Of a DNA stretch of 18,720 nucleotides, positions 1-18,720 are shown piece after piece. The DNA is from a virus (Duplodnaviria > Heunggongvirae > Uroviricota > Caudoviricetes). Under the pieces are notes generated by a model. The model ran no database searches. It had not been told where the DNA came from and saw nothing but the letters and a program-made list of their open reading frames with translations. A program made the translations under genes and the position numbers. The first letter of the stretch is position 1; every line of letters begins with the position of its first letter. The DNA lies in IMG/VR virus record IMGVR_UViG_2634166457_000003, positions 1-18,720 of that record. One strand, written 5' to 3'.

Positions 1-87
1 GTGGTTTTTTTGTATCCGTGGGATTGTTCGGCTCGCTATACAACTTTGCGAAGCATAGCGGAATTAAAGCAGTTTATACGTAAGAAA

Positions 88-1979: not shown

Positions 1980-2135
1980 TTACTCCCCAAGTTCGTAAGC
2001 TGTGAAGACAGCGACCTCCGTCTGGCCGGTTCGGATTCGTACCTCGCAGAGGTCTTTCCTCGTTACCAGTGCCGTCACTATGACGGTTAAACAGATGACG
2101 ATAAGGGCGATTAACATCGCCTTTTGCTGCTTCAT
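1980..2135 (-). CDS. Hok/Gef-family type I toxin, 51 aa (HokD/RelF-like)
   Basis: MKQQKAMLIALIVICLTVIVTALVTRKDLCEVRIRTGQTEVAVFTAYELGE: single transmembrane helix plus the conserved C-terminal CE.R.R....EVA..YE motif of the Hok family. AAGGAG sits 9 nt upstream of the ATG. The track ORF 1980..2192 is an in-frame upstream extension of it. Confidence 0.75.
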   Translation of the reverse strand: MKQQKAMLIALIVICLTVIVTALVTRKDLCEVRIRTGQTEVAVFTAYELGE

Positions 2136-2393
2136 AGCCTGCTTCTCCTTGCCTTTCGGCACGTAAGAGGCTAACCTACATTTGCTAGACATAGATTGGG
2201 CCTCAGATTAATGTTAAGCGTCTTGCAGGACGCGTAATGTTAACTGGGGCTTTTCTCTATCTGCCGTTGGTGGCATGCCCGAGGCAGATAGCCTCAAGCA
2301 CCCGCTGCAATTCTACTTAACTCTTCTTTTCCCGCAAACCGTTTTTATCCAGCACAGCAAATAGCCGCATTAAGCCAATGTTGTTCATTGTGT

Positions 2394-2573
2394 TTACCGC
2401 CAGTATTCAATACAAATGACCGCCATGAATACCCCTACAAAAAGCGCACTTATATGTCCAAATATTAATGTCAAGACATCAACTTCCTCCATCTCCTCCG
2501 CTGTTGCGATGATAGGTATACATGATGCAAACAACCAGATTGCAACAAATAAAAACTGCAATGTCTTTTTCAT
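2394..2573 (-). CDS. Small two-helix membrane protein, 59 aa, hypothetical
   Basis: Start trimmed to ATG (MKKTLQFLFVAIWLF...) preceded by GGGGGA; two hydrophobic helices separated by an acidic loop (TAEEMEEVD). Confidence 0.4.
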   Translation of the reverse strand: MKKTLQFLFVAIWLFASCIPIIATAEEMEEVDVLTLIFGHISALFVGVFMAVICIEYWR

Positions 2574-2688
2574 TATTCCCCCGACAATCAATGAGTAATA
2601 ACATTTAAACATAGATTGACATAATCAGACATAAAAATATCTGGCTGCACATTTTGCTTACATCGTGTTATAGGGAAGATTAAAAAAT

Positions 2689-3252
2689 TCACCGCAAAAC
2701 ATCCGCCGCGCTTACCAGTCCATTTCGCTTCAGGTAGTCCATCGCTTTATCCGGTAATTTGCAGTCCGACTTCACTTTCTTCAACTGGCTGACCAATTGC
2801 TTAACCAGCATGGTTAATTCATTAATCTGTTTGCCTGGTACTGGTGGATTGTCGGTTGCACCATGACTGGCAGTACAGTTAGCACTCCCTCCCTTCTCCT
2901 CCTGCAGCGGTTCAGGTAACGCTTCCAGTGATGTTTTTACAAACCACGCTGCCTGAACTATAACGCCATGAATCCAGCGCAAATCAGCATCGCGATCTTT
3001 CTTTTTCATCTTCTCGCCACTTAAAGCCTGGCTTATGTGACTGCGTACCAGGTCTTCATGTAACTCCTTCGCATCCTCAATGGTGAAACCACCAGGTAAA
3101 CGCCCCAGAGTTACCGGAGAGTTGCCAGCCTTGCGCATGGCAATTTCCACGATTTCAACCATATCTTCTGGTGGAATTTTACAATGCTGGCCAATATGCC
3201 TCTGCTGTCTGGCATACTCGAGGATGTGCTCCAGCTTGGTTCGATTAATCAT
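2689..3252 (-). CDS. Hypothetical phage protein, 187 aa
   Basis: ORF with ATG start overlapping the upstream stop (ATGA), consistent with translational coupling; no motif recognised. Confidence 0.6.
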   Translation of the reverse strand: MINRTKLEHILEYARQQRHIGQHCKIPPEDMVEIVEIAMRKAGNSPVTLGRLPGGFTIEDAKELHEDLVRSHISQALSGEKMKKKDRDADLRWIHGVIVQAAWFVKTSLEALPEPLQEEKGGSANCTASHGATDNPPVPGKQINELTMLVKQLVSQLKKVKSDCKLPDKAMDYLKRNGLVSAADVLR

Positions 3253-3728
3253 GATTTATCTCCCTTAAGCATGGCGGCGCGGCAGGCGTTAAGCGCGTTT
3301 TGCACGCGTTTAGCGTTCTGTACTTCGTATTTAGGTGCGGCTGCCAATGCCCATAGCCAACCAATTTCATAGCTATCAGCTTTTGATAGAGCACATTCCA
3401 TTTCCAGTGTTATTTTCTTAGGTACGAGTTGCCAATCATCTGGCACTACTGGCGCTGGTGCCCCAGACAGCAAAGCATCAGCCATACACATAGCTTCCAG
3501 TCCCGTAGCCTCCGCGATACCGTCACGAATAAGCTCAAGCCCCTCTTTTGTTAATAGTTTCATTCCTTTATACATGACGGGCACTAGCGGTTCTGTTTCC
3601 AGCGATGCCAGTGCAATTTTGAATAACTCACCCTCTACTCGTGCCACGCCTGAATTGGGATGGCATTTCGCAATCGCTATTTTTAATTTAGCTTCTTCAA
3701 TTAATTGTTCTTTTGTTAATTCAGCCAT
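3249..3728 (-). CDS. Hypothetical phage protein, 159 aa
   Basis: ORF in the operon frame series; Shine-Dalgarno weak; no motif recognised. Confidence 0.55.
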   Translation of the reverse strand: MAELTKEQLIEEAKLKIAIAKCHPNSGVARVEGELFKIALASLETEPLVPVMYKGMKLLTKEGLELIRDGIAEATGLEAMCMADALLSGAPAPVVPDDWQLVPKKITLEMECALSKADSYEIGWLWALAAAPKYEVQNAKRVQNALNACRAAMLKGDKS

Positions 3729-3821
3729 TTTTCACTACCGCCCTTTCAGGCGCTCCTGATGTTCTGAGGGTGCAGAAATCCCTCCGGTTAAGGATTAAAT
3801 TTTTAACAGTGCTAAATTTAA

Positions 3822-4178
3822 TTATTCAGTTCTGGATTTTGTCGCTCTGCGTATCCCCGCTTTTGCGTTACGCTCAATCTGAATTAACTTTTCTATATTT
3901 TTCCGCCTTTCCTGTTCCTCCTGGCGCAATAGCCTTACATCCTCTGCCAGTCTGGTTTCTCTTTTCGCCACAGAGAGCATCCAGCCAAACGGCTCCACAA
4001 CTGCACTGCAGATTTTACAGCGGACCTGACGCTCTTTTTCATCAACCCGGACAGAAGCGTGATGGCAATATGGTCTTTCCGATGGCTCATAAAGAAAATT
4101 AACCTGATTACGTGGGTCATCTTCTTTTACCGGAAATAAAACAATATTACTTAACTCATCTTCTGGTTTTATTTCCAC
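3822..4178 (-). CDS. Hypothetical Cys/His-rich (zinc-ribbon-like) protein, about 118 aa
   Basis: GTG start at 4178 preceded by AAGGAG with 6-nt spacing; alternative ATG start at 4211 would overlap the upstream gene. Motif PYCHH...CKIC. Confidence 0.5.
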   Translation of the reverse strand: MEIKPEDELSNIVLFPVKEDDPRNQVNFLYEPSERPYCHHASVRVDEKERQVRCKICSAVVEPFGWMLSVAKRETRLAEDVRLLRQEEQERRKNIEKLIQIERNAKAGIRRATKSRTE

Positions 4179-4179
4179 G

Positions 4180-4491
4180 TCACTCTCCTTTGATGCGAAT
4201 GCCAGCAACACGTAGTGCGCGCTCTAAATCAGCCAGATAAATCCAGCTGCCATTTTCCTTAGGTATCATGACATGGCGCTCATCAGCATTTATCGGGTGT
4301 CCATATCGAAGTTCATAGCCAGCCGGTAGCTGGACTTCCCTTGCCTCCAGTTCTGCAATGCGCTTGTCTTTGGCTTCCAGTTCATCAAGAACCTTTTTTA
4401 TGGCTGGTGAATGTGTCGCATAACTCGCAGCCGGACCGGCAAGCATTATCCTGAGCTGCGTTTTCGCTTTTTCCGTGTTCATTTGGTTCAT
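4180..4491 (-). CDS. Hypothetical phage protein, 103 aa
   Basis: ATG-initiated ORF in the operon; coiled-coil-like middle region (ELEAKDKRIAELEARE). Confidence 0.55.
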   Translation of the reverse strand: MNQMNTEKAKTQLRIMLAGPAASYATHSPAIKKVLDELEAKDKRIAELEAREVQLPAGYELRYGHPINADERHVMIPKENGSWIYLADLERALRVAGIRIKGE

Positions 4492-4506
4492 TACCTTATT
4501 TAGTGG

Positions 4507-4914
4507 CTATATTCCCCAATAGAACGTTAGTATACGCTGCATAACTTCGCTTTCCCGGCACTCGCTACAGATTATGTTCTGACGCCTGTCATAACGACGT
4601 ATTTCTCCGTCTGGTAATGACCAGATAAGGTCCGGATCAACCACAGATGTTTTTTTCTTCAGCTTTGCCCTTGAGAGTTTTTTGCGGGCATTTTGCCAGT
4701 CCTTACGAGCCTGTTCTGACGGGAATAACCCGTAGCCAGAGCTGTATACATCACCACTGACAACCAGCTCTCTTGCAAGAACGCTCATCAGATATCTTGT
4801 CGCACCTGTTTTAGCTTCCAGTTGCCGTAACGTCTCACGACCGCTCTGGCGCACGAGTTCCACCACCTGCCTTTTAATTTTTTCCCGCTCTTCTTGTGTA
4901 AATACTTTTGCCAT
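4507..4914 (-). CDS. Hypothetical phage protein, 135 aa
   Basis: Start trimmed to ATG (MAKVFTQ...) 8 nt downstream of GGAGG; basic C-terminal segment. Confidence 0.55.
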   Translation of the reverse strand: MAKVFTQEEREKIKRQVVELVRQSGRETLRQLEAKTGATRYLMSVLARELVVSGDVYSSGYGLFPSEQARKDWQNARKKLSRAKLKKKTSVVDPDLIWSLPDGEIRRYDRRQNIICSECRESEVMQRILTFYWGI

Positions 4915-4929
4915 AAGCGCCTCCGGCAA

Positions 4930-5691
4930 TCACTTTTCCGACACAATACGACTGGAGGAATCGACAATCTGTCGAACAATATCCCGGTGCTTGTTCAGCT
5001 CCCGTAGCGCGGCGCAGACTCGCTCCCACTTCTGGACATGACTTTTCGCCCGGCGCAGTTCGCGGTTTGCCATATGCAGCGATGGTAAAATCAGGTCATT
5101 GGCTCGCGTTTCAGTGAACGATGGTAGTGACTGCACAATGTCCCCCATAGTATCTGTTTTAATTTCTTCCTGTGTTGCCGCTTCCTGTGCTGGTAACGCA
5201 ACACCGGCTGGCTGAGGAAAGGCTTTACCATCAGTTTCCGCTACCGATGCAGCTTTCGGCTCTGCTGGTAAATTATCGCCCGGCATGCAGTAACGAAATT
5301 TACCGTTCTGATTAACGCGAATCAGACGACCTTTACTGATTGCCATTGCCAGCGTTGAAGCCACTTTGCGTGATGTGATGCCGAAAAACGTAGCCAGTTC
5401 ATCCGCCGTTTGTGGGCCACGTTGTTCAATCGTCGCAGTTAAATCGCACTCCGAAATTTTTGCGACTGTTGCCGTGGTGGTTTCTTCCGGCAGTTCTGCC
5501 TGCTCTGGCTGTTCCTGCTGAACGTTGTTATCAGCCACACGCCAGGTGTATACGCTTTTATCAACGAAACCAGCCTTTTTCAGTTCCCACAGCTCGTTCA
5601 GTACCTCTTCACGACTGATATCAAGTCGCGCAGCCAGTTCTACCGACGTGGCTTTTCCCATTGCTTTCAGTGCGTCAAAAACAGTCTCCAT
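4930..5691 (-). CDS. YdaW-like putative DNA-binding protein, 253 aa
   Basis: Start trimmed to ATG (METVFDALK...) preceded by GGGAGG; two winged-helix-like segments. Lies immediately downstream of ydaV, where K-12 Rac carries the ydaW remnant. Confidence 0.55.
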
Positions 5692-5713
5692 TAAAATTTC
5701 CTCCCGGTAAAAA

Positions 5714-6460
5714 TCACTTCGCAATTCCTGGCTGGACGACATTCGGACGCCAGCTCTCCCAGTTAAAATTCACCCAGCGTCCGCCGTTCATGGTCATGCG
5801 ATCCATAATCCGCTCGCCGAGCAATGTTTTCATCGCCTCATAGTTCAGGTTTGTCAGCATCCCCACGCTGCGCATCGACGCTGTCCGGCGATCAACAATC
5901 TGGTGCAGCACCACCTGCTCGTTTTTTGTCTCGCGCTGAATGCCAATTTCATCAAGAACCAGCAGATCCACTTGGCACAGTTCCCGCAAAAATTTTTCGC
6001 CTGATTGCCCGTCGTCATAGCTGGCGTGTAGAGCACTCATGACATCAGCCACGGTAACCACAATCACTGTCTGGCCATCTTTCAGCAGGCGATTCCCGAT
6101 AGCCGCCGCCAGATGGTTTTTTCCGGTACCAGGTTTTCCGCTGAACGCAAAATTTGTACACCCGGTCATCAGTTCATCAGCGATAGATTTCGCCTGGTTC
6201 AACGCGTATCGCTGACCGTCGTTCTGCACCTGGTAATTCGCAAACGAGCATTTGCGGTGCAATGGCTGGATGCCAGAGCGATTCAGAATTTTTTCCACCC
6301 GCAACTGACGATTCTGACGGTTGATCTCCTCACAACGTTTCTGGCCTTCGGAAAGTTGCCACTCGCGCCACTCCGCTACCGTTTTGAATGGGGCGGTTAC
6401 ATGTGGCGGGGCCAGTCTGCGGATACGTTCAAGAATGCCGCCTGCCGCAATATTTTTCAT
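5714..6460 (-). CDS. ydaV: DnaC/IstB-like AAA+ replication helicase-loader (YdaV), 248 aa
   Basis: Walker A motif [16 protein letters not shown]; length and sequence match the recalled K-12 YdaV; follows the O-like gene. Confidence 0.85.
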
Positions 6461-6466
6461 GGTCAG

Positions 6467-7324
6467 TTACCCCCTGAAGCCTGGCGGGATCGCACTATCC
6501 GGTAACGAGACGGTGTTAACCTGTCGGAGTAACGTCTCAGGTCGAACACCTTTTGGCGCGAACAAGCCCTGGTATTCATTGGCGATGCTGTGTCGAATCA
6601 CCTGCTCAGGTGAAAAACCCTGCTGGCGGAATTTTTCCAGCTCCCGTATCGCCCCGTTAGCGCCCTGCTCCGTTCGAATCGGTTTACGCAATGCCTGGCG
6701 AAATTCAACCCACTCACGCCAAAGCGAGACAGAAATCCAGTTCGGCAAAGCAATATCCAGAGGGTCAAACTTTTTGACACCTCGATTACCCCGGGGGGGA
6801 TTTAGGGGGGGATCTGTTTTTAGATCTTTATCTGTATCTTTATTAGTTGCCTTTGTGTTGACATCATGTTCAAACACCACTTCAACATCTGTTTGAACAC
6901 CTGTTAAATTTCTCTCTTGTTTTGTTTGAACATCTGCTTCCTTTCTGCTTCTTCTGGCCTGAACCGATGCTTTTCCTGCGGCTGATTTTTTGGTTAATTT
7001 TTCCCTGACTGATGCCAGATCTTCCTCAATCCGAAGATGCACCCATTCCTCGCCGTTATCGCAAAAAAACTCCCGCAAGGATGGTTCAACATCAGCCCAT
7101 CGCTCGTTAGTCAGGCGGGCAATTTTTGCCAGCCTGTTTTTAGGTATTGGCTTTCCTGTTTGCCAGTAATTGAACATCAGCAACAAATACGCACCATGCT
7201 CCTCTGCTGACAAATGCATGGTGTCAGCCAGGTAATCAGCTATGTACAGTTGCATGTATGGTAATGCGGCCATAATTGCCCCGTATGATGCTGCCCGGTG
7301 GCTTAGAATAAGCACAAACAGCAT
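6467..7324 (-). CDS. ydaU: Phage replication initiation protein (YdaU, O-like), 285 aa
   Basis: 285 aa ORF with ATG start; position between the cII-like and DnaC-like genes; matches recalled K-12 YdaU length. Confidence 0.8.
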   Translation of the reverse strand: MLFVLILSHRAASYGAIMAALPYMQLYIADYLADTMHLSAEEHGAYLLLMFNYWQTGKPIPKNRLAKIARLTNERWADVEPSLREFFCDNGEEWVHLRIEEDLASVREKLTKKSAAGKASVQARRSRKEADVQTKQERNLTGVQTDVEVVFEHDVNTKATNKDTDKDLKTDPPLNPPRGNRGVKKFDPLDIALPNWISVSLWREWVEFRQALRKPIRTEQGANGAIRELEKFRQQGFSPEQVIRHSIANEYQGLFAPKGVRPETLLRQVNTVSLPDSAIPPGFRG

Positions 7325-7336
7325 GGAAACTTTTGC

Positions 7337-7759
7337 TTAATGAACAATGACAGAATCGTCGGAAGACCCGCCGCCGCTGAAATGCGCTTTCCGGTAAACG
7401 GCTTGGACTGCATCATCATGCGCATCAATTGCCGTACTTAACGCTTCCTGCGCCGCCAGTAATGCACGGCGTTCCAAGGTATCGAAGATGTAGAGTCGGT
7501 GACGCAGATCGCGCGGAAGGATTGCCAGAATTGCTGGGATCAGCTTCTGAATTTTTTCTCTTTGCGTTTTTGTTTCACCTTTCAACCAACGGTGATAGAT
7601 ATTCTGCTGATTGTTCCAGTCCTTGCCTGGAACCAGGGGCAATTCGCAGTCCCCCTGGCGCAGATATTCTTCAGTAATTGCATTGGCTACCCATGCCTGC
7701 CCTTTTTCGGCTGCCAGGGCAAACAACACTGATTCGATGTGCTCATGCTTGATTTTCAT
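7337..7759 (-). CDS. ydaT: YdaT (cII-like early regulator/toxin), 140 aa
   Basis: 140 aa, immediately downstream of the cro-like ydaS; matches recalled K-12 Rac YdaT. Confidence 0.8.
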   Translation of the reverse strand: MKIKHEHIESVLFALAAEKGQAWVANAITEEYLRQGDCELPLVPGKDWNNQQNIYHRWLKGETKTQREKIQKLIPAILAILPRDLRHRLYIFDTLERRALLAAQEALSTAIDAHDDAVQAVYRKAHFSGGGSSDDSVIVH

Positions 7760-7781
7760 GAATCATTTGCCTCTTGATGTT

Positions 7782-8078
7782 TCAGGTATGATCAAATGAG
7801 GATTTGTTACTGTCTTTTAGTTGCTTCACTGACATATTCTGCGAACAACATGCCGAACGTCGTAAATATGACCAGTCAATATCAGGACGAAGTTCTTCGC
7901 ACAGAACCTCACCTCTTGTTGCACGTTCAATTGCTGGACATCTCTCGGCAGGCAATTGACGTACCCCTTTGATCCATTGATTTACGCTTGGAGGTGATAC
8001 ACCTAAAAGCCTAGCCATTGCTGATTGCCCACCGACAACAGCACAAGCTTGCTTGAATGAATAGTTCTCTTTTTTCAT
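7782..8078 (-). CDS. ydaS: YdaS (Cro-like HTH regulator/toxin), 98 aa
   Basis: Helix-turn-helix segment (QACAVVGGQSAMARLLGVSPPSVNQWIKG); divergent from racR; GGAG 9 nt upstream of the ATG. Confidence 0.8.
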   Translation of the reverse strand: MKKENYSFKQACAVVGGQSAMARLLGVSPPSVNQWIKGVRQLPAERCPAIERATRGEVLCEELRPDIDWSYLRRSACCSQNMSVKQLKDSNKSSFDHT

Positions 8079-8104
8079 CGAATGAACTCCAAAAACACAC
8101 AGGA

Positions 8105-8134
8105 ATATTAGGCGACGCCTAACGCAAATGTCAA
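8105..8134 (-). promoter_or_regulatory. pR-like sigma70 promoter for ydaS (TTGACA-18-TAATAT on minus strand)
   Basis: On the minus strand, -35 TTGACA (8129-8134) and -10 TAATAT (8105-8110), about 25 nt upstream of the ydaS start; overlapped by TTAGGC-type operator half-sites. Confidence 0.55.
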
Positions 8135-8190
8135 TAGGCTATGCCTAATGCGATAAAGGTAGGGATTGCCTAATGTAATGCGCATAGGAG
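8107..8190. promoter_or_regulatory. Operator cluster (OR-like) between ydaS and racR
   Basis: Repeated dyads built from TTAGGC / GCCTAA half-sites: TTAGGCGACGCCTAA (8108-8122), ATAGGCTATGCCTAAT (8134-8149), and a weaker GCCTAAT-containing site near 8166-8186. Confidence 0.6.
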
Positions 8191-8201
8191 AATATTAAGC
8201 A

Positions 8202-8678
8202 ATGCTTAGTGGTAAAGACTTAGGCCGAGCGATAGAGCAGGCCATTAACAAAAAAATCGCATCGGGATCCGTCAAATCAAAGGCGGAGGTCGCACGCCAC
8301 TTCAAAGTCCAACCACCATCAATTTATGACTGGATTAAGAAAGGCTCTATAAGTAAAGATAAACTTCCAGAATTATGGCGTTTCTTTTCTGATGTTGTTG
8401 GTCCAGAGCATTGGGGGCTTAACGAATACCCCATACCAACCCCCACCAATTCAGATACAAAAAGTGAACTTTTAGATATAAACAACCTTTATCAAGCAGC
8501 CTCTGATGAAATAAGAGCGATTGTAGCTTTCCTGTTATCTGGAAATGCTACAGAACCAGATTGGGTTGACCACGATGTTCGCGCCTACATAGCAGCGATG
8601 GAAATGAAAGTGGGTAAGTATCTGAAAGCTCTAGAATCTGAACGGAAAAGCCAGAACATCACAAAAACTGGAACTTAA
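8202..8678 (+). CDS. racR: Prophage repressor RacR (CI-like), 158 aa
   Basis: 158 aa; divergent from the cro-like ydaS; flanked on both sides by operator dyads; AGGAG upstream of the ATG; matches recalled K-12 RacR. Confidence 0.85.
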   Translation: MLSGKDLGRAIEQAINKKIASGSVKSKAEVARHFKVQPPSIYDWIKKGSISKDKLPELWRFFSDVVGPEHWGLNEYPIPTPTNSDTKSELLDINNLYQAASDEIRAIVAFLLSGNATEPDWVDHDVRAYIAAMEMKVGKYLKALESERKSQNITKTGT

Positions 8679-8749
8679 ACTTATATGGTCTGACGGAAAA
8701 CTCCTGGATTCCGTTATTTAACCCCCCCATCACTTTCTGCTGTCGCCAT

Positions 8750-8817
8750 CACCTATTAGGTTACGCTCAAAACATTAGGCATAGCCTATTGACAATCAAT
8801 TAGGCATTACCTATAGT
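8750..8817. promoter_or_regulatory. Operator cluster (OL-like) downstream of racR
   Basis: ATTAGGCATAGCCTAT (8774-8789) is the exact reverse complement of the OR-side site at 8134-8149; additional TTAGGCATTACCTAT (8799-8813) and CCTATTAGG (8752-8760). Confidence 0.6.
8789..8817 (+). promoter_or_regulatory. pL-like sigma70 promoter for the ydaG-to-intR operon (TTGACA-17-TATAGT)
   Basis: Consensus -35 TTGACA (8789-8794), 17-nt spacer, -10 TATAGT (8812-8817); operator half-sites overlap the -35 and the spacer. Confidence 0.6.
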
Positions 8818-8986
8818 TCCAGCATACCACCCACCCCGCCCCACAGAACGCCGGGCAATACTTCGAGTTACCAGGCAGTGGTAAGGGGTTAAGTAGCCAG
8901 CCCGAGGCGTATGAACATGACGGCGGGATTCAAATTTTGCAGTGCAGCAGTTAGTTCCGCCACCCGGCGTTAAGGGGAGAGATAAG

Positions 8987-9121
8987 ATGGTGCATTACGA
9001 AGTAGTTCAGTATTTGATGGATTGTTGCGATATCACTTACAGCCAGGCTGTACAGGCTCTACGCAGCAACGACTGGGACCTCTGGCAGGCAGAAGCCTCT
9101 ATCCGCAACAACAAAATGTGA
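8987..9121 (+). CDS. ydaG: YdaG, 44 aa small protein
   Basis: Not in the six-frame track (under 60 aa). ATG at 8987 follows AAGGGGAGAG; translation MVHYEVVQYLMDCCDITYSQAVQALRSNDWDLWQAEASIRNNKM; matches recalled K-12 YdaG length. Confidence 0.7.
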   Translation: MVHYEVVQYLMDCCDITYSQAVQALRSNDWDLWQAEASIRNNKM

Positions 9122-9131
9122 GGTGCGAAAA

Positions 9132-9287
9132 ATGCAAAAAATCGACCTCGGCAATAACGAATCCCTGGTGTGCGGCGTATTCCCCAACCAGGACGGTACG
9201 TTCACCGCGATGACGTATACCAAAAGCAAAACATTTAAAACCGAAACTGGTGCGCGCCGATGGTTGGAGAAGCACACAGTAAGCTAA
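9132..9287 (+). CDS. ydaF: YdaF, 51 aa small protein
   Basis: Not in the track. ATG at 9132 follows AGGTG; translation MQKIDLGNNESLVCGVFPNQDGTFTAMTYTKSKTFKTETGARRWLEKHTVS; matches recalled K-12 YdaF length. Confidence 0.7.
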   Translation: MQKIDLGNNESLVCGVFPNQDGTFTAMTYTKSKTFKTETGARRWLEKHTVS

Positions 9288-9772
9288 CGATTAAAACGCC
9301 TACTCCTGCTGTTCCAGAATAACTTCATAAAGTGGGAGTATTTTTCGGTGACTAGATAATAAGAACAGTTTGCGCTATCACTCTGATGTTGAATGATGCC
9401 CTTCCGTTCTAATTTTTTCATAACCGGGTTACGGCAAGGAGAAGTGATAATAAGATTTCCTGTTTTAAGGAAATCTTTAAATACAGCGATTTCTTTCTCA
9501 GATAAACGAAGCAATACTCGTTGCTCTGGCAGCAATGAATAATGCTTTTGAATATGTGCTCGCAATCTTGAGAAGGAAATGGCGACCACGAAAGAAAAGG
9601 CAAAAACGATAATCTGAAATAGCCAGGATATTTCAGTATAAGAATTGAATGCGACAGCGAACTCTTTCGGTATCAACCAGAGAGTGAGACCAAAAATGAT
9701 AATCGTGTACATAAGTCTTTCGAGTGGCTCGTTAGCAAAAAGTTTCAACAATGGAGTAAATACATCCAACAT
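9284..9772 (-). CDS. sieB: Superinfection exclusion protein SieB, 162 aa
   Basis: Start trimmed to the internal ATG (MLDVFTPLLKLF...) to give the 162-aa length recalled for K-12 SieB; hydrophobic N-terminal helices. Coordinates follow the track frame. Confidence 0.75.
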   Translation of the reverse strand: MLDVFTPLLKLFANEPLERLMYTIIIFGLTLWLIPKEFAVAFNSYTEISWLFQIIVFAFSFVVAISFSRLRAHIQKHYSLLPEQRVLLRLSEKEIAVFKDFLKTGNLIITSPCRNPVMKKLERKGIIQHQSDSANCSYYLVTEKYSHFMKLFWNSRSRRFNR

Positions 9773-9990
9773 ATCAATAACTCTCGACTGTAAGGGTATT
9801 GAAATGTTAACACAAGCTCTCGCTGTAGGGGTATAGCAGAGACCACCGAAGCCCGGAGGTGGTGAAATAAAACCGGGCACAACACGAAGGCGCATTTCCG
9901 ATATCCATAAAGAGTCGGTCTTGTCTGTTAAATTTAAATGGTGGGAGTGCGCCTCCGGTTGTGGATAACAACACTGCTGTGTGTAGTCTT

Positions 9991-10037
9991 GGCGGCATCA
10001 GTTTTTTCTTGAAGTTCGACTGATGTCCGCCCTTTTT
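9991..10037 (+). terminator. Candidate intrinsic terminator upstream of kilR
   Basis: Imperfect inverted repeat GGCGGCATCAGT ... ACTGATGTCCGCC followed by CTTTTT. Confidence 0.35.
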
Positions 10038-10212
10038 AAAGTGAATTTTGTGATGCGGTGAATGCGGCTAAGCGCACGCGGCACAGTTAAAAGTCATGTT
10101 AGTCCTTATTGGTTTGGGTGGGAAAGCCGACTGTAATTGTTAACTGGTTGCAGTCACCTGGAGGCACCAGGCACCGCATCAACAAAGTTCATTTGTAAAA
10201 ATGGAGATAATT

Positions 10213-10434
10213 ATGATTGCACATCACTTCGGAACTGATGAAATACCACGTCAGTGTGTGACTCCTGGTGACTATGTTCTTCATGAAGGCCGGACATATA
10301 TTGCATCGGCAAACAATATTAAAAAGCGAAAACTTTATATTCGTAACCTGACCACAAAAACATGCATTACTGACTGCATGATTAAAGTCTTCCTCGGTCG
10401 TGATGGTTTACCTGTAAAGGCGGAGTCATGGTGA
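10213..10434 (+). CDS. kilR: Cell-division inhibitor KilR, 73 aa
   Basis: Start trimmed to the second ATG ([14 protein letters not shown]...); matches the recalled K-12 KilR sequence and length. Confidence 0.85.
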
Positions 10435-10604
10435 TGACTAAGAAAATAAAATGTGCTTATCACCTTTGCAATAAAGGAATTGAAGAAAGCAAAAGCATTA
10501 AAAGACCACTTCATTTCATGCGTGGAGTTATCCCAACGACGGAAATGAAAAAATATTGTAGTGAAATTTGTGCCGAAAAAGACCAGATGGCACACGAACT
10601 TTAA
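10434..10604 (+). CDS. ydaE: YdaE, 56 aa Cys-rich small protein
   Basis: Not in the track. [15 protein letters not shown]...CSEICAEKDQMAHEL; start overlaps the kilR stop; alternative start at 10428. Confidence 0.7.
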   Translation: MTKKIKCAYHLCNKGIEESKSIKRPLHFMRGVIPTTEMKKYCSEICAEKDQMAHEL

Positions 10605-10677
10605 TTAACTAACTATGCGAAACTGAATTTATGCCAGCAATGGCAGGGATTCGCTCAACCTTAATTAAGGAGAAAAA

Positions 10678-10953
10678 ATGATTACCAATTATGAAGTCAC
10701 TGTTGTAACTACCGATGACATTGTTCACGAGATTAATCTGGAAGGAAAGCGTATTGGCTACGTGATTAAAACAGAAAATAAAGAAACCCCATTCACTGTG
10801 GTTGATATTGACGGCCCATCAGGCAACGTAAAAACACTTGATGAAGGTGTCACAAAAATGAGTCTGGTTCACATCGGAAAGAATCTGCCCGCAGAAAAAA
10901 AAGCCGGATTTCTGGCAACTCTGATTGCAATGAAATTAAAAGGTGAAATCTGA
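10678..10953 (+). CDS. racC: RacC, 91 aa
   Basis: 91 aa; GGAG upstream of the ATG; matches recalled K-12 RacC; immediately upstream of recE. Confidence 0.8.
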   Translation: MITNYEVTVVTTDDIVHEINLEGKRIGYVIKTENKETPFTVVDIDGPSGNVKTLDEGVTKMSLVHIGKNLPAEKKAGFLATLIAMKLKGEI

Positions 10954-11051
10954 AAAAAGAAAGCCTGCACAACGTGCAGGCCTGAGTGAAGAACCTGGGA
11001 CATTTATTCATCACTCGCAGTAATTTTAATCTGAGTTGAGGTTAAAAAACA

Positions 11052-14000
11052 ATGAGCACAAAACCACTCTTCCTTTTACGGAAAGCGAAAAAATCATCCG
11101 GTGAGCCTGACGTCGTCCTGTGGGCAAGCGACGATTTTGAATCAACCTGTGCCACTCTGGACTACCTGATCGTTAAGTCAGGTAAAAAACTGAGCAACTA
11201 TTTTAAAGCTGTTGCCACGAGTTTTCCTGTCGTTAATGACCTGCCCCCTGAAGGTGAGATCGATTTTACCTGGAGTGAACGCTATCAACTCAGCAAAGAC
11301 TCCATGACCTGGGAACTAAAACCGGGAGCAGCGCCAGACGACGTTCACCACCAGGATAATGCTCAGGAAACCAAAGAACTGGCGGGAGGCCAGGAAGAAA
11401 ACGCGCAGGCAGACGCCCACGGGGATTGCCAGGATTGCGAAGTCTCTGTAGCCACTTTGCGGTTCACACAGCGTCTTCTTCACATTTTTACGTATGCGGC
11501 CGGGGATCGGAAATACCTGCATCATGCTACCCGTGAACAACGCGAACACATTACTGCTCTTGAGATGGACCAGGAAAACAGCTATGTCCAGAATCTGCTG
11601 TTGGCCATACGCGGCATGGCAGAACCGACAACTCTGGATAATGCCGCCCTGCTCCGCCTGACTGATGCAATTAAGGCAGTTTTCTCTATCACGAAAAAAC
11701 ATCAGCCCTATGAATTTAAGAATTTCATTTCAGCCTGGCTGGATACCGAACACATTGATCGTGGTCTTCTGACAAAAGAATGGAGGAAAGGGAATCGTGT
11801 TTCACGCATCACTCGCACGGCTTCCGGTGCTAATGCTGGCGGCGGGAACCTCACCGATCGCGGCGAAGATTTCGTCCACGATCTGACGTCACTGGCACGC
11901 GATGTAGCCACTGGCGTACTGGCCCGTTCAATGGACGTGGACATCTATAACCTTCATCCGGCACACGCTAAACGCATTGAGGAAATTATCGCTGAAAATA
12001 AACCGCCCTTTTCTGTTTTCCGCGACAAATTCATCACCATGCCTGGCGGGCTGGATTATTCCCGCGCCATCGTGGTTGCGTCCGTAAAAGAAGCACCAAT
12101 TGGGATCGAGGTCATCCCCGCGCACGTCACTGAATATCTGAACAAAGTACTGACTGAAACCGATCATGCAAACCCTGATCCGGAAATCGTGGATATTGCC
12201 TGCGGTCGCTCCTCTGCCCCGATGCCGCAGCGAGTAACAGAAGAAGGAAAACAGGATGATGAAGAAAAACCGCAACCATCTTGCGCAATGGCAAATGAAC
12301 AGGCAACGGCTGAAACAATGGAACCGGACGCAACTGAACATCATCAGGACACGCAGCCGCTGGATGCTCAGTCACAGGTAAATTCTGCTGATGCGAAATA
12401 TCAGGAACTGCGGGCAGAACTCCATGAAGCCCGGAAAAACATTCCATCAAAAAATCCTGTCGATGCCGACAAATTGCTGGCTGCCTCGCGTGGTGAGTTC
12501 GTTGAAGGGATTAGCGACCCGAACGATCCGAAATGGGTAAAGGGGATCCAGACTCGCGACTCTGTGTACCAGAACCAGCCAGAAACGAAACAAAACACGC
12601 CAGAAACTGTAAAAACCAGCCCGGATGTGAAACAACCTGAGCCAGTAGTGCAACAGAAACCGGAAATAGTCTGCAATGCCTGCGGTCAGACTGGCGGGGA
12701 TAACTGCCCTGACTGTGGTGCGGTGATGGGCGACGCAACATACCAGGAAACATTCGATGAAGAGAATCAGGTTGAAGCTAAGGAAAATGATCCGGAGGAA
12801 ATGGAAGGCGCTGAACATCCGCACAAGGAGAACGCTGGCAACCATCCGCATCACGATTGCAGTGATGAAACTGGTGAAGCGTCAGCTCATGTAGCAACTG
12901 AAATCATGTGGCCGTCATATTTCGAGCCTGGCCGCTATGAAAACCTCCCGAACGAGGTTTATCACTCCGCCAACGGAATAAGCAGCACAATGCTGAAGGA
13001 TGCCCGCATCAGTCTGATGTATTACCACGGGCGGCACATTGCCGGAACTATTCCGAACGAGGAAAGTGATGCATTGCTGCGTGGGCGGATCATTCACAGC
13101 TATGTTCTGGAAACGGATAAATTCGCTGATGAATATGCCATTCCGGTACCGGTTCCTGAATATGTGGTTACTACTTCTAACGAGCTGATCACCATCATTA
13201 AAAAACACAATGCCAGTCTGCCATCACTGATGACACCAGAGCAGATGAAAGAGTGGATCGAAAGCTACAACAGCACTCTTATACAGCCACTGTCGGTAAG
13301 CGCTGGGGCCGAAGAAACAGGCATCCTTTACGGTTCGCTTCCGGAGGAATTTCGGCGTATTCCTGAGGGGGAAAAACACACAGCATCAGCAATGAAAGCC
13401 TGTATTAAAGAATACAACGCAAGCCTCCCTCCTCTGCTGAAAACCAGTGGAACACGGGAGCAGCTTCTGGAGCAAATTGAAACTGTAGATCCAGAACTGG
13501 CAAAAAAAGAACGTGCTAAATCGTTGCCTTACAACATCAGTGGCACAAAAGAGCAATTAACCGAAATCGCCCGGAAAATTCGCCCGGAACTGGTAACACT
13601 GGAGGACTGGCAAAAACGCCAGCAAGAAGAAAATGCAGGAAAAACGTTTATCAGTCCAGATATGTATGAACAGGCAAAAAATATTCACGTGGCACTGCAA
13701 AACAATACTGACGCGGCAAGACTACTCAACCACCCGGATCGCAAATCTGAAATCAGCTATTTCGGGTTTGATGAAGAAACCGGGCTGGAAATCAGGGTCC
13801 GCCCTGATATCGAAATCCGACTGCCATACGAAAGCATCTGCGCCGACGTGAAATCAGTAAGCCTCGGTTATGTGCGGCAAGAACGACTAAAAGATCGCTT
13901 ACACCGTGAAATTATTGAACGTGATTATCACCTGAGCGCCGCAATGTACTGCGATGTGGCAAACTTGGACAAATTTTTCTGGATCTTCGTCAACAAAGAT

Positions 14001-14063
14001 GCTGGCTATCACTGGGTGGCTGTCGTGGAAGCCTCGCAGGAACTCCTGGAACTTGGTCGATAG
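11052..14063 (+). CDS. recE: RecE-like exodeoxyribonuclease VIII, 1003 aa as read; ends at an in-frame amber codon with the frame open to 14195
   Basis: N-terminal roughly 600 aa match the recalled K-12 RecE ([26 protein letters not shown]...); the C-terminal domain carries PD-(D/E)xK-like motifs ([13 protein letters not shown]). TAG at 14061-14063 is followed by 43 sense codons in the same frame up to TGA 14193-14195. Confidence 0.8.
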
Positions 14064-14206
14064 GAATATCGCCGGACGCTACGACAGATAAACGAAGCGC
14101 TGGAGACAAACAACTGGCCAGCACCGATTACCGAAAGTTATACCGACGAATTAAACGACTTTGATCTTCGTCGTCTTGAAGCACTGAGCATCTGAGGAAG
14201 GACACA

Positions 14207-15259
14207 ATGAACGAATTAACTCAACAAGAAAATATTAACTCTAATGTTGCAGTTTTCAGCCCTCAGTCTCTGGCTGCAATTCAGACGTTTTCTCAGGTAA
14301 TGGCTTCCGGCATGGCTACTGTACCGGAACACCTCCGAGGAAATCCATCAGACTGCATGGCCATCACCATGCAGGCGATGCAGTGGCAAATGAACCCTTA
14401 CGCAGTAGCTCAGAAAACTTTCGTTGTGAATGGTGTGCTCGGATATGAAGCGCAACTGGTTAATGCCGTAATCAGTACTCGTGGGCCGCTAACCGGGCGT
14501 ATTGAATATGACTGGTTCGGGCCGTGGGAAAAAATTATCGGGAAATTTGAAATCAGGAAGAACGACAAAGGGAAAGAATATCGTGTACCTGGCTGGAAGC
14601 TGGCCGATGAAAACGGGATCGGAGTTCGCGTCCAGGCAACACTACGCGGAGAGAGCAAACCACGCGTACTGGAGTTACTTCTGGCGCAGGCCAGAACACG
14701 TAACTCAACGTTATGGGCCGATGATCCTCGTCAGCAGCTTGCCTATCTGGCACTGAAACGCTGGGCGCGCCTTTATTGCCCTGAAGTGATTCTTGGAGTG
14801 TACACCCGGGACGAACTGGACGAACCACAGGAAAAAATCATTAATCCGGTTCAGGAACATAAAAACACATCCGCCTGCCGTGCGGAACGTGAAACAACAA
14901 TTATTGAGCAGGATGCAGGGGAAAACTGGATCAGTGCTTTCCGTGAACGTATTGAGCAGGCACAAAGCACCGGAGAAACAACAGCACTTCGGCAGGAAGT
15001 GGAAGAGCATAAAAATACACTTGGCGCTCTCTATACGGAACTTAAAGGAAAAGTGGTTCAGCGTCATCACCGTCTCAATGCTATTGCCCGTATTGAGAAG
15101 ATGATAAATGACCTGCCTTCATCAGGTGATCCGGAAGCAGAACAAAAATTTACTGCTCTGGAAAATGCGTTGAATGCTGCACGACCACATCTGGGAGAAT
15201 TATATGAGGCGTATAAAACGACACTGACAGATATGAAACCAGAATATATCGGCTCCTGA
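14207..15259 (+). CDS. Single-strand annealing protein of the Red-beta/RecT superfamily, 350 aa (not K-12 RecT)
   Basis: Sits in the recT position after recE; GAGGAAGG upstream of the ATG. Segments MNPYAVAQKTFVVNGVLGYEAQLVNAVI and WADDPRQQLAYLALKRWARLY resemble the Red-beta core, while the overall sequence differs from the recalled K-12 RecT. Confidence 0.7.
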   Translation: MNELTQQENINSNVAVFSPQSLAAIQTFSQVMASGMATVPEHLRGNPSDCMAITMQAMQWQMNPYAVAQKTFVVNGVLGYEAQLVNAVISTRGPLTGRIEYDWFGPWEKIIGKFEIRKNDKGKEYRVPGWKLADENGIGVRVQATLRGESKPRVLELLLAQARTRNSTLWADDPRQQLAYLALKRWARLYCPEVILGVYTRDELDEPQEKIINPVQEHKNTSACRAERETTIIEQDAGENWISAFRERIEQAQSTGETTALRQEVEEHKNTLGALYTELKGKVVQRHHRLNAIARIEKMINDLPSSGDPEAEQKFTALENALNAARPHLGELYEAYKTTLTDMKPEYIGS

Positions 15260-15322
15260 TATTTACTATGGCGGCGTAGCCTCACCGCCATAACAAAACT
15301 TTATTTTATGAGAGAAAATACA

Positions 15323-15517
15323 ATGCGGTATGAAAAAGTCAAACCATGTCCATTTTGTGGTTGTTCATCAGTAACGGTGAAAGCCATTTCAGGATATTAC
15401 CGAGCGAAGTGTAACGGATGCGAATCCCGAACCGGCTATGGTGGAAGTGAAAAAGAAGCACTCGAACGATGGAATAAACGAACCTCTGGAAATAATAATG
15501 GAGGTGTTCATATATAA
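15323..15517 (+). CDS. ralR: RalR (Lar), 64 aa; type I toxin with DNase activity and restriction-alleviation role
   Basis: Start trimmed to MRYEKVKPCPFCG...; Cys-rich motif CPFCGC...CNGC; matches the recalled K-12 RalR sequence and length. Confidence 0.85.
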   Translation: MRYEKVKPCPFCGCSSVTVKAISGYYRAKCNGCESRTGYGGSEKEALERWNKRTSGNNNGGVHI

Positions 15518-15698
15518 AATTACCGCCACTATTGAAAAGGAAGGAGGCACTCCTACTAACTGGACAAGATATTCAAAATCTAAACTAACGAAATCAGAAT
15601 GCGAAAAAATGCTCTCAGGTAAAAAAGAAGCAGGCGTTTCCAGAGAGCAGAAAGTAAAACTGATAAATTTTAATTGCGAGAAACTTCAGTCCTCATGA
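15498..15698 (+). CDS. ydaC: YdaC-like small protein, about 66 aa
   Basis: ORF overlapping the ralR 3' end in another frame; start uncertain (ATG at 15498 or 15438, neither with a clear Shine-Dalgarno); position matches ydaC of K-12 Rac. Confidence 0.5.
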   Translation: MEVFIYKITATIEKEGGTPTNWTRYSKSKLTKSECEKMLSGKKEAGVSREQKVKLINFNCEKLQSS

Positions 15699-15797
15699 AT
15701 TGCATTGTATTCAAATTAAAACTTCATAGCTGATTATTAATAATCAACATCGGGCGTCAATTTCAGTCTAACATTGGCGCCTGCCAGAGGTGATGCG

Positions 15798-16013
15798 ATG
15801 GCACAAGTAATCTTTAATGAAGAGTGGATGGTTGAATACGGCCTGATGCTTCGCACTGGTCTGGGTGCCAGACAAATTGAAGCATACCGCCAGAACTGTT
15901 GGGTGGAAGGCTTCCACTTCAAACGAGTATCTCCTTTAGGGAAGCCAGACAGTAAGCGAGGGATTATCTGGTACAACTATCCGAAGATAAATCAGTTTAT
16001 CAAAGACTCATGA
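15798..16013 (+). CDS. xisR: Excisionase XisR (YdaQ), 71 aa
   Basis: Start trimmed to ATG at 15798 ([12 protein letters not shown]...), since the track ORF begins on TTG; ends 1 nt before the integrase start; matches recalled K-12 YdaQ. Confidence 0.85.
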
Positions 16014-16014
16014 T

Positions 16015-17250
16015 ATGTCTAAATTACCAACAGGTGTCGAGATTCGAGGTAAATACATTCGCATCTGGTTCATGTTTCGAGGAAAACGATGTCGGGAAAC
16101 ATTGAAAGGCTGGGAGATTACTAACAGTAACATTAAAAAGGCCGGGAATTTAAGAGCGTTGATAGTTCATGAAATCAGTTCCGGTGAATTTGAGTATTTA
16201 AGACGTTTTCCCCAGTCCAGCACTGGGGCAAAAATGGTGACAACGAGGGTCATAAAAACATTCGGGGAGCTTTGTGATATCTGGACAAAAATTAAAGAGA
16301 CAGAGTTAACAACAAACACAATGAAGAAAACGAAATCACAATTAAAAACACTCAGGATAATAATTTGTGAGAGTACCCCGATATCGCATATTCGTTATAG
16401 CGATATCTTAAACTACCGGAATGAACTGCTGCATGGAGAAACGCTTTACCTGGATAATCCAAGATCCAACAAAAAAGGAAGAACCGTGCGCACAGTTGAT
16501 AACTATATCGCCCTGCTCTGTTCGCTGTTACGTTTTGCGTATCAGTCGGGATTTATATCAACCAAACCATTTGAAGGAGTAAAAAAATTACAGCGAAACA
16601 GAATAAAGCCTGATCCGTTATCTAAAACAGAATTCAATGCATTAATGGAAAGTGAAAAAGGACAGAGCCAGAACTTGTGGAAATTTGCCGTTTACTCAGG
16701 ACTTCGTCACGGGGAACTGGCAGCTCTGGCGTGGGAGGATGTGGATCTCGAAAAGGGAATAGTGAATGTCAGAAGGAACCTGACGATACTTGATATGTTC
16801 GGTCCCCCAAAAACAAATGCCGGGATCCGGACAGTAACACTACTGCAGCCTGCTCTTGAAGCACTGAAGGAGCAATACAAACTGACCGGACATCATCGCA
16901 AAAGCGAAATCACCTTTTATCATCGGGAGTACGGCAGAACCGAAAAGCAAAAACTGCATTTTGTTTTCATGCCCAGGGTGTGTAACGGAAAACAAAAACC
17001 TTATTACTCGGTAAGCAGTTTGGGGGCAAGGTGGAATGCAGCAGTAAAACGTGCTGGTATTCGCCGCCGTAATCCGTACCATACGCGGCATACTTTTGCC
17101 TGCTGGCTGTTGACGGCAGGAGCGAACCCGGCATTTATAGCCAGCCAAATGGGGCATGAAACTGCGCAGATGGTGTATGAAATTTACGGTATGTGGATTG
17201 ATGACATGAACGACGAACAGATAGCCATGTTGAATGCGCGGTTATCGTAG
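16015..17250 (+). CDS. intR: Tyrosine-recombinase integrase IntR, 411 aa
   Basis: 411 aa; C-terminal catalytic region with an HTRHTFA motif (HxxR); adjacent to xis and to the host ttcA. Confidence 0.9.
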   Translation: MSKLPTGVEIRGKYIRIWFMFRGKRCRETLKGWEITNSNIKKAGNLRALIVHEISSGEFEYLRRFPQSSTGAKMVTTRVIKTFGELCDIWTKIKETELTTNTMKKTKSQLKTLRIIICESTPISHIRYSDILNYRNELLHGETLYLDNPRSNKKGRTVRTVDNYIALLCSLLRFAYQSGFISTKPFEGVKKLQRNRIKPDPLSKTEFNALMESEKGQSQNLWKFAVYSGLRHGELAALAWEDVDLEKGIVNVRRNLTILDMFGPPKTNAGIRTVTLLQPALEALKEQYKLTGHHRKSEITFYHREYGRTEKQKLHFVFMPRVCNGKQKPYYSVSSLGARWNAAVKRAGIRRRNPYHTRHTFACWLLTAGANPAFIASQMGHETAQMVYEIYGMWIDDMNDEQIAMLNARLS

Positions 17251-17301
17251 TTGCAAAGTTTGCCCCCAATTTGCCCCATTTAGTACCAGAGAACTTAAAT
17301 A

Positions 17302-18237
17302 ATGCAAGAAAATCAACAAATTACAAAGAAAGAACAATACAACCTGAACAAATTACAAAAACGTCTGCGTCGTAACGTGGGCGAAGCCATTGCTGACTTC
17401 AATATGATTGAAGAAGGCGATCGCATCATGGTTTGCCTCTCCGGGGGTAAAGACAGCTATACCATGCTGGAAATTCTGCGCAATTTGCAGCAAAGCGCGC
17501 CAATCAATTTTTCGCTGGTGGCTGTTAACCTCGATCAAAAGCAACCGGGCTTCCCGGAACACGTTCTGCCCGAGTATCTTGAAAAGCTGGGCGTTGAGTA
17601 CAAGATTGTTGAAGAGAACACTTACGGTATCGTGAAAGAGAAGATTCCAGAGGGCAAAACCACTTGCTCACTGTGTTCTCGGCTACGTCGCGGTATCCTT
17701 TATCGCACCGCAACGGAACTGGGGGCGACGAAGATCGCGCTGGGTCACCATCGTGACGATATCCTGCAAACGCTGTTCTTAAATATGTTCTACGGCGGCA
17801 AGATGAAAGGTATGCCTCCGAAACTGATGAGCGATGATGGCAAACATATCGTTATTCGTCCGCTGGCCTACTGCCGCGAGAAAGATATTCAGCGCTTTGC
17901 CGATGCAAAAGCGTTCCCGATTATTCCGTGCAACCTGTGCGGTTCACAGCCTAACCTGCAACGTCAGGTGATTGCTGACATGTTGCGTGACTGGGATAAA
18001 CGTTATCCGGGGCGTATCGAGACGATGTTCAGCGCGATGCAGAATGTGGTGCCGTCACATCTGTGCGATACCAACCTGTTCGATTTTAAAGGCATTACTC
18101 ACGGTTCTGAAGTGGTTAACGGGGGTGATCTGGCGTTTGATCGCGAAGAGATCCCACTACAACCGGCGGGCTGGCAGCCAGAAGAAGATGAAAATCAGTT
18201 GGATGAGTTACGGCTGAATGTGGTTGAAGTGAAATAA
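17302..18237 (+). CDS. ttcA: tRNA 2-thiocytidine(32) synthetase TtcA, 311 aa
   Basis: PP-loop ATPase motif SGGKDS; Cys motifs [10 protein letters not shown] and CNLCGSQ; matches the recalled E. coli TtcA sequence. Confidence 0.95.
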
Positions 18238-18247
18238 CCAGGATAGC

Positions 18248-18300
18248 GCCCGATGCGCAAGCTTATCGGGCTACTCTTATGGAGGCCGGATAAGACGCGG
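18248..18300. repeat. REP-like extragenic palindromic units downstream of ttcA
   Basis: GCCCGATGCGCAAGCTTATCGGGCTAC and GGCCGGATAAGACGCGGCC resemble the E. coli REP consensus (GCC.GATGCG...TTATC.GGCCTAC). Confidence 0.45.
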
Positions 18301-18302
18301 CC

Positions 18303-18720
18303 TGAACTGCACCCCAAATGTTGGACATAATCTGACATCTGAAGGTGCAGTTTATGAAACATTCATTTGAAGTAAAACTTGCCGCTGTAAATCATTACCT
18401 GGCTGGTCATGCAGGCATCATTTCTACGGCAAAACTCTTTCAACTTTCTCACACCAGCCTCTCACACTGGATTAATCTTTTTCTTCTTCACGGTCCTCGG
18501 GCACTGGATTGCAGACACAAGCGTAGCTATTCTCCTGAAGATAAACTTTGCGTGGTTCTTTATGCTCTCGGGCATTCTGAGTCTCCTACCCCGGGTAGCT
18601 GCCCGGTTTAACATTCCCAGCCACAACACGGTTAAAAACTGGATAAAAGGCTACCGCAAATCTGGTAATGAGGCCTTTATCAGGCGCAGGAAGGAGAAAA
18701 GCATGACCGTTCTGATGATA
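18303..18720 (+). mobile_element. IS3-family (IS150-group-like) element, left part; continues beyond the window
   Basis: Begins with TG (TGAACTGCACCCCAAATGTTGGACA), an IS3-family-style terminus, followed by an orfA-like reading frame. The left boundary is approximate. Confidence 0.45.
18345..18611 (+). pseudogene. IS3-family transposase OrfA-like gene, apparently frameshifted
   Basis: N-terminus (FEVKLAAVNHYLAG...) aligns with recalled IS150 OrfA; the similarity continues in the +1 frame after about 18590 (VAARFNIPSHNTVKNWIKGYRKSGNEAF), with the frame change at a CCCCGGG run. Confidence 0.5.

Follow-up and report, generated by a model that had tools for sequence, protein, structure and literature searches.

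RecE is a processive 5′–3′ double-stranded DNA (dsDNA) exonuclease in which a long N-terminal region precedes a C-terminal PD-(D/E)XK nuclease domain. The recET orthologues of the Gifsy-1 and Gifsy-2 prophages are silent until activated, upon which they suppress recombination defects (PMC3121763). Shuffling of the recombination region among lambdoid phages has been catalogued, with 34 sequence-type combinations in 314 phages; the same work mentions Rac and Gifsy-1 RecE as well as "RecE-2" proteins without a nuclease domain, and states that shuffling of partner-interaction domains was left unanalysed (PMC12315714). Here we describe recE and the adjoining annealase gene in an 18,720-nucleotide stretch of viral DNA (positions 1 to 18,720 of IMG/VR record IMGVR_UViG_2634166457_000003; hereafter the window, meaning the whole stretch). 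These genes make up the early-left recombination operon of a lambdoid prophage of the Rac family, inserted at ttcA. The operon joins a Rac-type scaffold to a nuclease-annealase block of the Gifsy-1/mEp237/HK225 type, and its two proteins very probably represent a two-part single-strand-annealing system; recE carries an amber codon.

The two open reading frames (ORFs) described in an earlier, sequence-only reading of this DNA are present at 11052–14063 (+), encoding 1003 amino acids (aa), and at 14207–15259 (+), encoding 350 aa. Blastn alignment to K-12, with the MC4100 locus (L002) as reference, divided the region into the following segments:

7057–11348: 96.2% DNA identity to K-12
11349–11756: no DNA match to K-12
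11757–12879: 93.6% DNA identity to K-12
12880–15303: no DNA match to K-12
15304–17618: 98.0% DNA identity to K-12

The left breakpoint, which had been predicted near 12900, was found at 12879/12880, directly 3′ of codons 605–609 (DETGE). The unmatched block at 12880–15303 coincides exactly with the recE nuclease domain plus the annealase gene and has K-12-like DNA on both sides. On the right it ends shortly after the stop codon of the annealase gene, at a GC-rich hairpin located 5′ of ralR. Beyond residue 609, protein identity to K-12 RecE is about 25–30%, with a large insertion, and the earlier claim of a C-terminal domain of different sequence holds (only ∼25–30% identical to K-12 RecE past the breakpoint). 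That the locus is a plain K-12 recET orthologue, evenly mutated and without a recombination breakpoint, can be considered practically out of the question: identity drops from 92–94% to ∼25% within a few codons at 12879/12880 and is back to 98% at 15304, and within E. coli near-identical scaffolds are found with either allele. Uniform divergence along the gene is thus excluded by the sharp breakpoint in the K-12 alignment. The parts of the locus are as follows:

11052–11348 (+): recE codons 1–99, K-12-like, 94% aa identity to K-12 RecE, inside the 96.2% blastn block
11349–11756 (+): recE codons 100–235, a non-K-12 allele and second mosaic patch, no blastn match, 21% aa identity
11757–12879 (+): recE codons 236–609, K-12-like scaffold, 93.6% DNA and 92% aa identity, ending with DETGE (12864–12878)
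12880–14195 (+): Gifsy/mEp237-type RecE nuclease domain, codons 610–1047 of the ancestral gene, interrupted by the amber codon
13149–13631 (+): helical insertion of ∼160 aa in the nuclease domain, codons ∼700–860, opposite a gap in K-12 RecE at residues ∼669–690
14061–14063 (+): amber TAG at recE codon 1004, replacing CAG (Gln), from alignment to E. coli A30
14064–14195 (+): untranslated 3′ remnant of recE, 44 codons, with the ancestral stop at 14193–14195
14207–15259 (+): annealase, 350 aa, RecT/Red-beta superfamily, PHROG 561 subfamily
15270–15303 (+): right junction, GC-rich hairpin (15270–15289) and spacer upstream of ralR; K-12 similarity resumes at 15304 (blastn and comparison of the junction sequences)

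The N-terminal part of the ORF matches Pfam Exonuc_VIII (PF06630) over aa 2–182 (E 1e-66). The first ∼600 residues had been said to follow K-12 RecE nearly residue for residue, which is correct for residues 1–99 (94%) and 236–609 (92%) and fails for residues 100–235 (21%). The RecE N-terminus is therefore itself mosaic, and the 100–235 patch is independent of the block downstream: in a survey of 80 viral contigs carrying the K-12-like scaffold (residues 236–609), each of which was typed, both patch alleles occur with both cassette types (32, 15, 11, and 9 loci), indicating free assortment. The scaffold also contains a zinc-ribbon-like CxxC-x10-CxxC motif at 12672–12719, ∼50 residues before the DETGE joint.

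The domain behind the joint is a genuine but distant RecE-type nuclease domain, since it matches Pfam DUF3799 (a PDDEXK domain) and, by sequence, the RecE structure 3H4R (E 3e-7), is supported by a structural model, and keeps the active-site motifs. The latter, IHSYVLE, VRPD, and ADVKSV (His, PD, DxK), align with those of K-12 and are invariant in 13 homologues. The AlphaFold model of a 98%-identical homologue has a mean predicted local distance difference test score (pLDDT) of 71, with the core and insertion mostly at 85–95, and the domain has the RecE fold expected of a C-terminal PD-(D/E)XK nuclease. The full-length relative from E. coli A30 (98.2% identical) scored 1363 bits against NCBIfam NF007259, exodeoxyribonuclease VIII (cut-off 1269), a score that belongs to this intact protein and not to the amber-shortened one of the window. 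Close relatives of the domain are a "Gifsy-1 prophage RecE" (51%) and gp31 of coliphage mEp237 (52% over 428 residues), whose gene adjoins that of gp30.

The insertion in the nuclease domain is kept in all 13 homologues and is predicted by AlphaFold2 to be all-helical (pLDDT about 85–95). It contains an internal duplication, residues 702–745 against 771–816 (Smith-Waterman score 63, z 8.5, reached in 0 of 500 shuffles). In K-12 RecE the loops at 665–698 are disordered and presumably capture the dsDNA end (reviewed in PMC11611040); the insertion site, opposite K-12 residues ∼669–690, falls inside these loops. We considered the insertion as a SAP/HeH DNA-binding domain and dropped this assignment: the Pfam matches were below threshold (Ish1, E 0.07; SAP_new25, E 0.08), and by residue count the segment is slightly acidic. 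Nucleases found beside the same annealase core in Aeromonas spp. (L161–L167) have a window-type first core segment and insertion (31–38% identical), followed by a second core segment that the K-12 type fits better (34–37%). By this sequence pattern they may be an intermediate or hybrid lineage.

The annealase consists of a core (∼aa 1–215, to position 14851) and a variable helical C-terminal domain (∼aa 235–350, from 14909). It had been called a non-RecT annealase, a label that does not hold at the family level: the protein matches Pfam RecT (PF03837) with 148 bits over aa 30–209 (E 3.4e-43, cut-off 24) and its homologues are annotated as RecT family recombinase. PF03837 also matches K-12 RecT (189 bits) and λ Beta (116 bits). 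At the finer level of PHROG families the three separate, with the window protein in PHROG 561 (match to phrog_561 at E 2e-144; label "RecT family recombinase/enterohemolysin"), K-12 RecT in 148, and λ Beta in 252. Judged from these profile matches, the annealase is a RecT-family member of a subfamily other than that of K-12 RecT. No NCBIfam model matched it.

That the 350-aa partner differs from K-12 RecT stands, as no significant similarity between the two was detected by BLASTP (E 0.36) or hhalign (E 0.14). The description "Red-beta-like" is weakly backed: similarity to λ Beta was marginal in BLASTP (E 0.021), hhalign gave E 0.0047 for Beta with a probability of only 7.5%, and there was a weak match to phrog_10056, which Beta matches strongly. 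The AlphaFold2 model (pLDDT 69) has a beta-rich core and a helical C-terminal domain joined by a low-confidence linker at 195–237. A Foldseek search with this pLDDT-69 model returned nothing significant (top match 7UJL, E 0.15), and neither did searches of solved structures with the single annealase sequence and with a 23-sequence profile. The protein is 99.1% identical to that of A30 and 48% identical to mEp237 gp30; more than 6300 related clusters at 90% identity are named RecT family recombinase, recombinase RecT, or enterohemolysin.

The annealase gene is intact in the window. In Shiga toxin-producing E. coli 2013C-3342 (L003, 7328–8380) an internal stop interrupts the same gene, which is annotated as a pseudogene, whereas the nuclease gene (1049 aa) is undamaged, so that decay affects the opposite partner from that in the window. 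In an E. coli variant locus (L028, 8421–9524), the same nuclease domain stands next to an annealase with 63% overall identity to that of the window. This annealase has an mEp237-like N-terminus and core (∼residues 90–180), and its last ∼70 residues are near-identical to those of the window, showing mosaicism inside the gene.

The survey of viral contigs also addressed whether nuclease and annealase move as a unit. Behind the scaffold, the K-12-type nuclease domain was found in 54 contigs and the window type in 21. Where the locus was resolved, every K-12-type nuclease domain had a K-12-type recT behind it (50/50) and every window-type domain a window-type annealase (21/21), so that the two types are completely linked (71/71 loci). 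A third arrangement occurs in three contigs (L065, L068, and L070), in which a 677-aa scaffold ORF without nuclease domain is followed by a λ-like gam-bet-exo; in L065 (5296–9065) gam, bet, and exo are 80% (residues 41–138 only), 95%, and 94% identical to those of λ. All three arrangements leave the common sequence within ∼20 nt past DETGE.

The blocks seen behind the scaffold are thus K-12 RecE-nuclease with RecT, Gifsy-type nuclease with a PHROG 561 annealase, and λ gam-bet-exo. We tentatively suggest, as a possibility that is rather doubtful at present, that the RecE N-terminal region (∼609 aa) is an autonomous module behind whose fixed DETGE joint interchangeable end-processing blocks are plugged in. 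If so, it would work independently of the annealase present and of a covalent link to the nuclease, the latter because the scaffold is unfused to any nuclease in the gam-bet-exo arrangement, and the contigs would provide a natural set of chimeras for learning the role of the RecE N-terminal region.

Exonuclease and annealase had also been held to co-vary as cognate pairs. Within the survey no cross-combination was seen (50/50 and 21/21). A cross-genus scan, in which the annealase profile was run against one genome per species, showed that the same core occurs beside three kinds of nuclease or none. The core was recovered, at 56–97% identity, in five settings: beside window-type nucleases with long N-termini (24 Enterobacterales loci), beside short stand-alone K-12-type RecE domains (12 loci), beside λ-Exo-like genes (10 loci, mostly Pseudomonas), beside a hybrid nuclease in Aeromonas, and with no recognisable nuclease. 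The annealase C-terminal domain is hypervariable across the scanned loci, and its window-type form was detected in all 24 loci with a window-type nuclease domain and in no others.

Whether the complete linkage reflects functional co-adaptation through a specific protein–protein interface, beyond physical adjacency, appears to us evenly balanced. The concordance of all 71 pairs and the restriction of the window-type C-terminal domain to its own nuclease type (24/24 loci) speak for an interface. So does the L028 variant, in which the core has been swapped beside the same nuclease domain with little change in the last ∼70 residues. In λ, Exo is bound by the C-terminal domain of Beta (PMC11611040), and by analogy the kept tail of L028 fits a partner-binding tail. 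Linkage alone is no proof of co-adaptation, however, because blocks without internal DNA homology move only whole: homologous recombination cannot split them, whatever their function, and full linkage is to be expected on that ground alone. The occurrence of the same core across genera beside K-12-type RecE domains, λ-Exo-like nucleases, or no nuclease also argues against a specific interface. We rejected a clean rule by which the nuclease type would dictate the annealase C-terminal domain, as two loci (L112 and L113) have a K-12-type nuclease together with a window-like motif at the C-terminal end, and K-12-type nuclease domains occur with four or more unrelated C-terminal tails.

The recE gene of the window does not encode a complete protein. 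The A30 locus is 98.8% identical in DNA sequence; its recE encodes 1047 aa and ends 12 nt before the annealase gene. Aligned to it, the 1003-aa ORF is a shortened form of the 1047-aa gene, which the sequence-only reading had missed, and the TAG at codon 1004 is the sole internal stop in the recE frame up to 14195. The 57-mer at the stop was matched in 180 complete E. coli genomes, none of them exactly; eight among the matches listed were 98.2% identical, which is one mismatch. The amber codon is therefore either private to the strain or a draft-assembly error, since no matching complete genome has the exact 57-mer.

The 44 lost residues hold positions invariant across the 13 homologues (EY, R, I, WPAP, L, L) and, in the AlphaFold2 model, account for the greater part of its long C-terminal helix. 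The window consequently lacks a complete nuclease domain with C-terminal helix and QEY...WPAP segment, which is intact in the relatives. The mutated Gln lies in GRQEY, which aligns with GQQEY in K-12 RecE and resembles, by sequence pattern only, AQVQY of the λ-Exo-like protein in L065. We take this position to be the Q..Y motif of RecB-family nucleases. The window RecE, 44 residues short, is probably inactive, and the recE/annealase pair is likely nonfunctional as it stands because of the amber stop.

A course of events can be proposed. By homology to K-12 RecE/RecT and Gifsy recET, an intact RecE would resect dsDNA ends in the 5′–3′ direction, and the annealase would load on the resulting 3′ single-stranded tail and anneal the complementary strand. 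The contiguous 2.4-kb block of nuclease domain plus annealase most likely came from homologous recombination between lambdoid prophages. The left crossover would have taken place in the conserved recE scaffold, no further than codon 609, and the right one in the conserved ralR leader, with the block moving as one unit. A C-to-T change made Gln1004 an amber codon in the window strain, probably leaving RecE dead; the annealase gene is intact. The operon would be under prophage repression in the early-left region, as in the K-12 and Gifsy prophages.

Several points weigh against this reading. Similarity between K-12 and the window falls steeply, not razor-sharply, to the right of codon 609; such a gradient fits a crossover between already diverged homologues and is no proof of a single event. 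The exchange may also have run either way: K-12 could equally be the recombinant, the window pair being the widespread Gifsy/mEp237 type. The earlier proposal that a nuclease-plus-annealase unit was replaced within a conserved scaffold is accordingly backed by the exact extent of the block and by the 71/71 linkage, and is qualified by this ambiguity of direction and by the mosaic N-terminus. It is plausible, with somewhat less than an even chance, that the window arrangement is the older one and K-12 Rac the recombinant that took a block of short RecE-nuclease and RecT. The combination of long N-terminus, window-type nuclease, and annealase is found in Salmonella, Enterobacter, Citrobacter, Serratia, Atlantibacter, and phages mEp237 and HK225, and K-12-type nuclease domains elsewhere (47–55% identical) are short stand-alone genes without the N-terminal region. 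On the other side, the K-12 block is the commoner one on the scaffold (54 vs. 21), although frequency says little on ancestry.

Finally, the assembly that shows the amber codon (GCA_001186315.2) is a draft, and the codon may reflect a sequencing error; recE would then be intact, with 1047 aa. We regard such an error, in sequencing or in assembly, as unlikely. Only one base is involved, and downstream of it the frame stays open and conserved, the following 44 codons differing from those of A30 by a single synonymous change. The exact 1003-aa product, however, is on record for contig KQ241480.1 of that NCBI assembly, its only occurrence, and the contig is listed for 2 samples; decay of the operon is also known elsewhere, from the internal stop in the annealase gene of strain 2013C-3342.

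As to the surroundings of the Rac-type scaffold with its Gifsy-type block, the window is the left arm of the prophage adjoining ttcA. The gene order is racR, ydaF, sieB, kilR, ydaE, racC-like, recE, annealase, ralR, DUF1187, xisR, intR, and ttcA, an order shared from racR to ttcA with the Rac prophage of K-12 and with numerous further E. coli strains. Over the whole window, no match above ∼95–96% was obtained to any complete E. coli genome in RefSeq. A promoter and terminator scan of 10500–15600 gave no signal exceeding shuffled expectation. Two type I toxin-antitoxin loci are present in the prophage: the RalA antitoxin small RNA at 15516–15694 (−; Rfam, 219 bits) adjoins ralR (∼15323–15517), and the sok antitoxin RNA lies at 2130–2303 (−; Rfam, 118 bits), with hokD annotated at the corresponding place in the A30 locus. 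Downstream of ttcA, the end of the IS3-family element IS1397 (18303–18720; 99.3% identical to many copies) takes the place of the usual ttcA–dbpA spacer. One record with closely similar genes, "Actinobacillus phage vB_Apl-pPE4" (L005, PP818812.1), has recE and annealase genes 97–99% identical to the E. coli Rac-type ones and ydaT, dicA, and kil as neighbours; its stated Actinobacillus host looks doubtful.

The block is not rare. Among complete E. coli genomes, 159 contain it with a query coverage of 80% or more, and in ∼193 of 5426 its identity is 90% or higher. The RefSeq annotation of this allele, present in more than 150 of these genomes, reads recE and RecT family recombinase. The shuffled variant is thus common and already annotated, and the sequence-only reading was a correct reading of a known kind of mosaic, ordinary lambdoid module shuffling, not of a new system. 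As such it matters little past bookkeeping. The 80-contig survey does supply a small concrete data set on whether partner-interaction domains get shuffled, made up of full nuclease-annealase linkage on one scaffold, a joint that accepts three different blocks, and an annealase whose core is promiscuous and whose C-terminal domain is hypervariable. In practical terms, the amber codon would have to be repaired before the pair is tried in recombineering, or an intact allele taken instead, for example from A30; oligonucleotide recombineering could still be attempted with the annealase by itself.

Compared with named systems, the locus shares with K-12 Rac RecE (exonuclease VIII, PDB 3H4R)/RecT the prophage family, the integration site, and the operon position. 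Codons 1–99 and 236–609 of recE are 92–94% identical between the two, and both annealases match PF03837. Unlike K-12 Rac, the window has a nuclease domain that is only ∼24–29% identical and bears a duplicated ∼160-aa helical insertion at the K-12 665–698 loops, different residues 100–235, and an amber-shortened recE. K-12 RecT has 269 aa and belongs to PHROG 148, whereas the window annealase has 350 aa, belongs to PHROG 561, and possesses a long helical C-terminal domain.

The Salmonella Gifsy-1 and Gifsy-2 recET, mEp237 gp31/gp30, and HK225 have the same architecture as the window, namely an Exonuc_VIII-type N-terminus and a DUF3799 domain with the insertion, followed within 12 nt of the nuclease gene by a RecT-family annealase of 350–370 aa (in the window, as counted from the ancestral stop). 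Over full length, the nuclease domains are 51–52% and the annealases 48% identical. These systems differ from the window in the N-terminal region, which is only ∼35% identical since the window has the K-12 Rac scaffold, and in prophage backbone and integration site. λ Red likewise pairs a 5′–3′ PD-(D/E)XK exonuclease with a Rad52-like annealase, Beta also matches PF03837, and three viral contigs have a near-λ gam-bet-exo at this position behind the RecE scaffold. λ Exo, however, is a separate 226-aa protein encoded after the annealase gene, whereas the window nuclease is fused within recE and precedes the annealase; Beta, at 261 aa, is marginally similar to the window annealase (BLASTP E 0.02, hhalign E 0.0047), and the window block, unlike λ Red, has no Gam gene.

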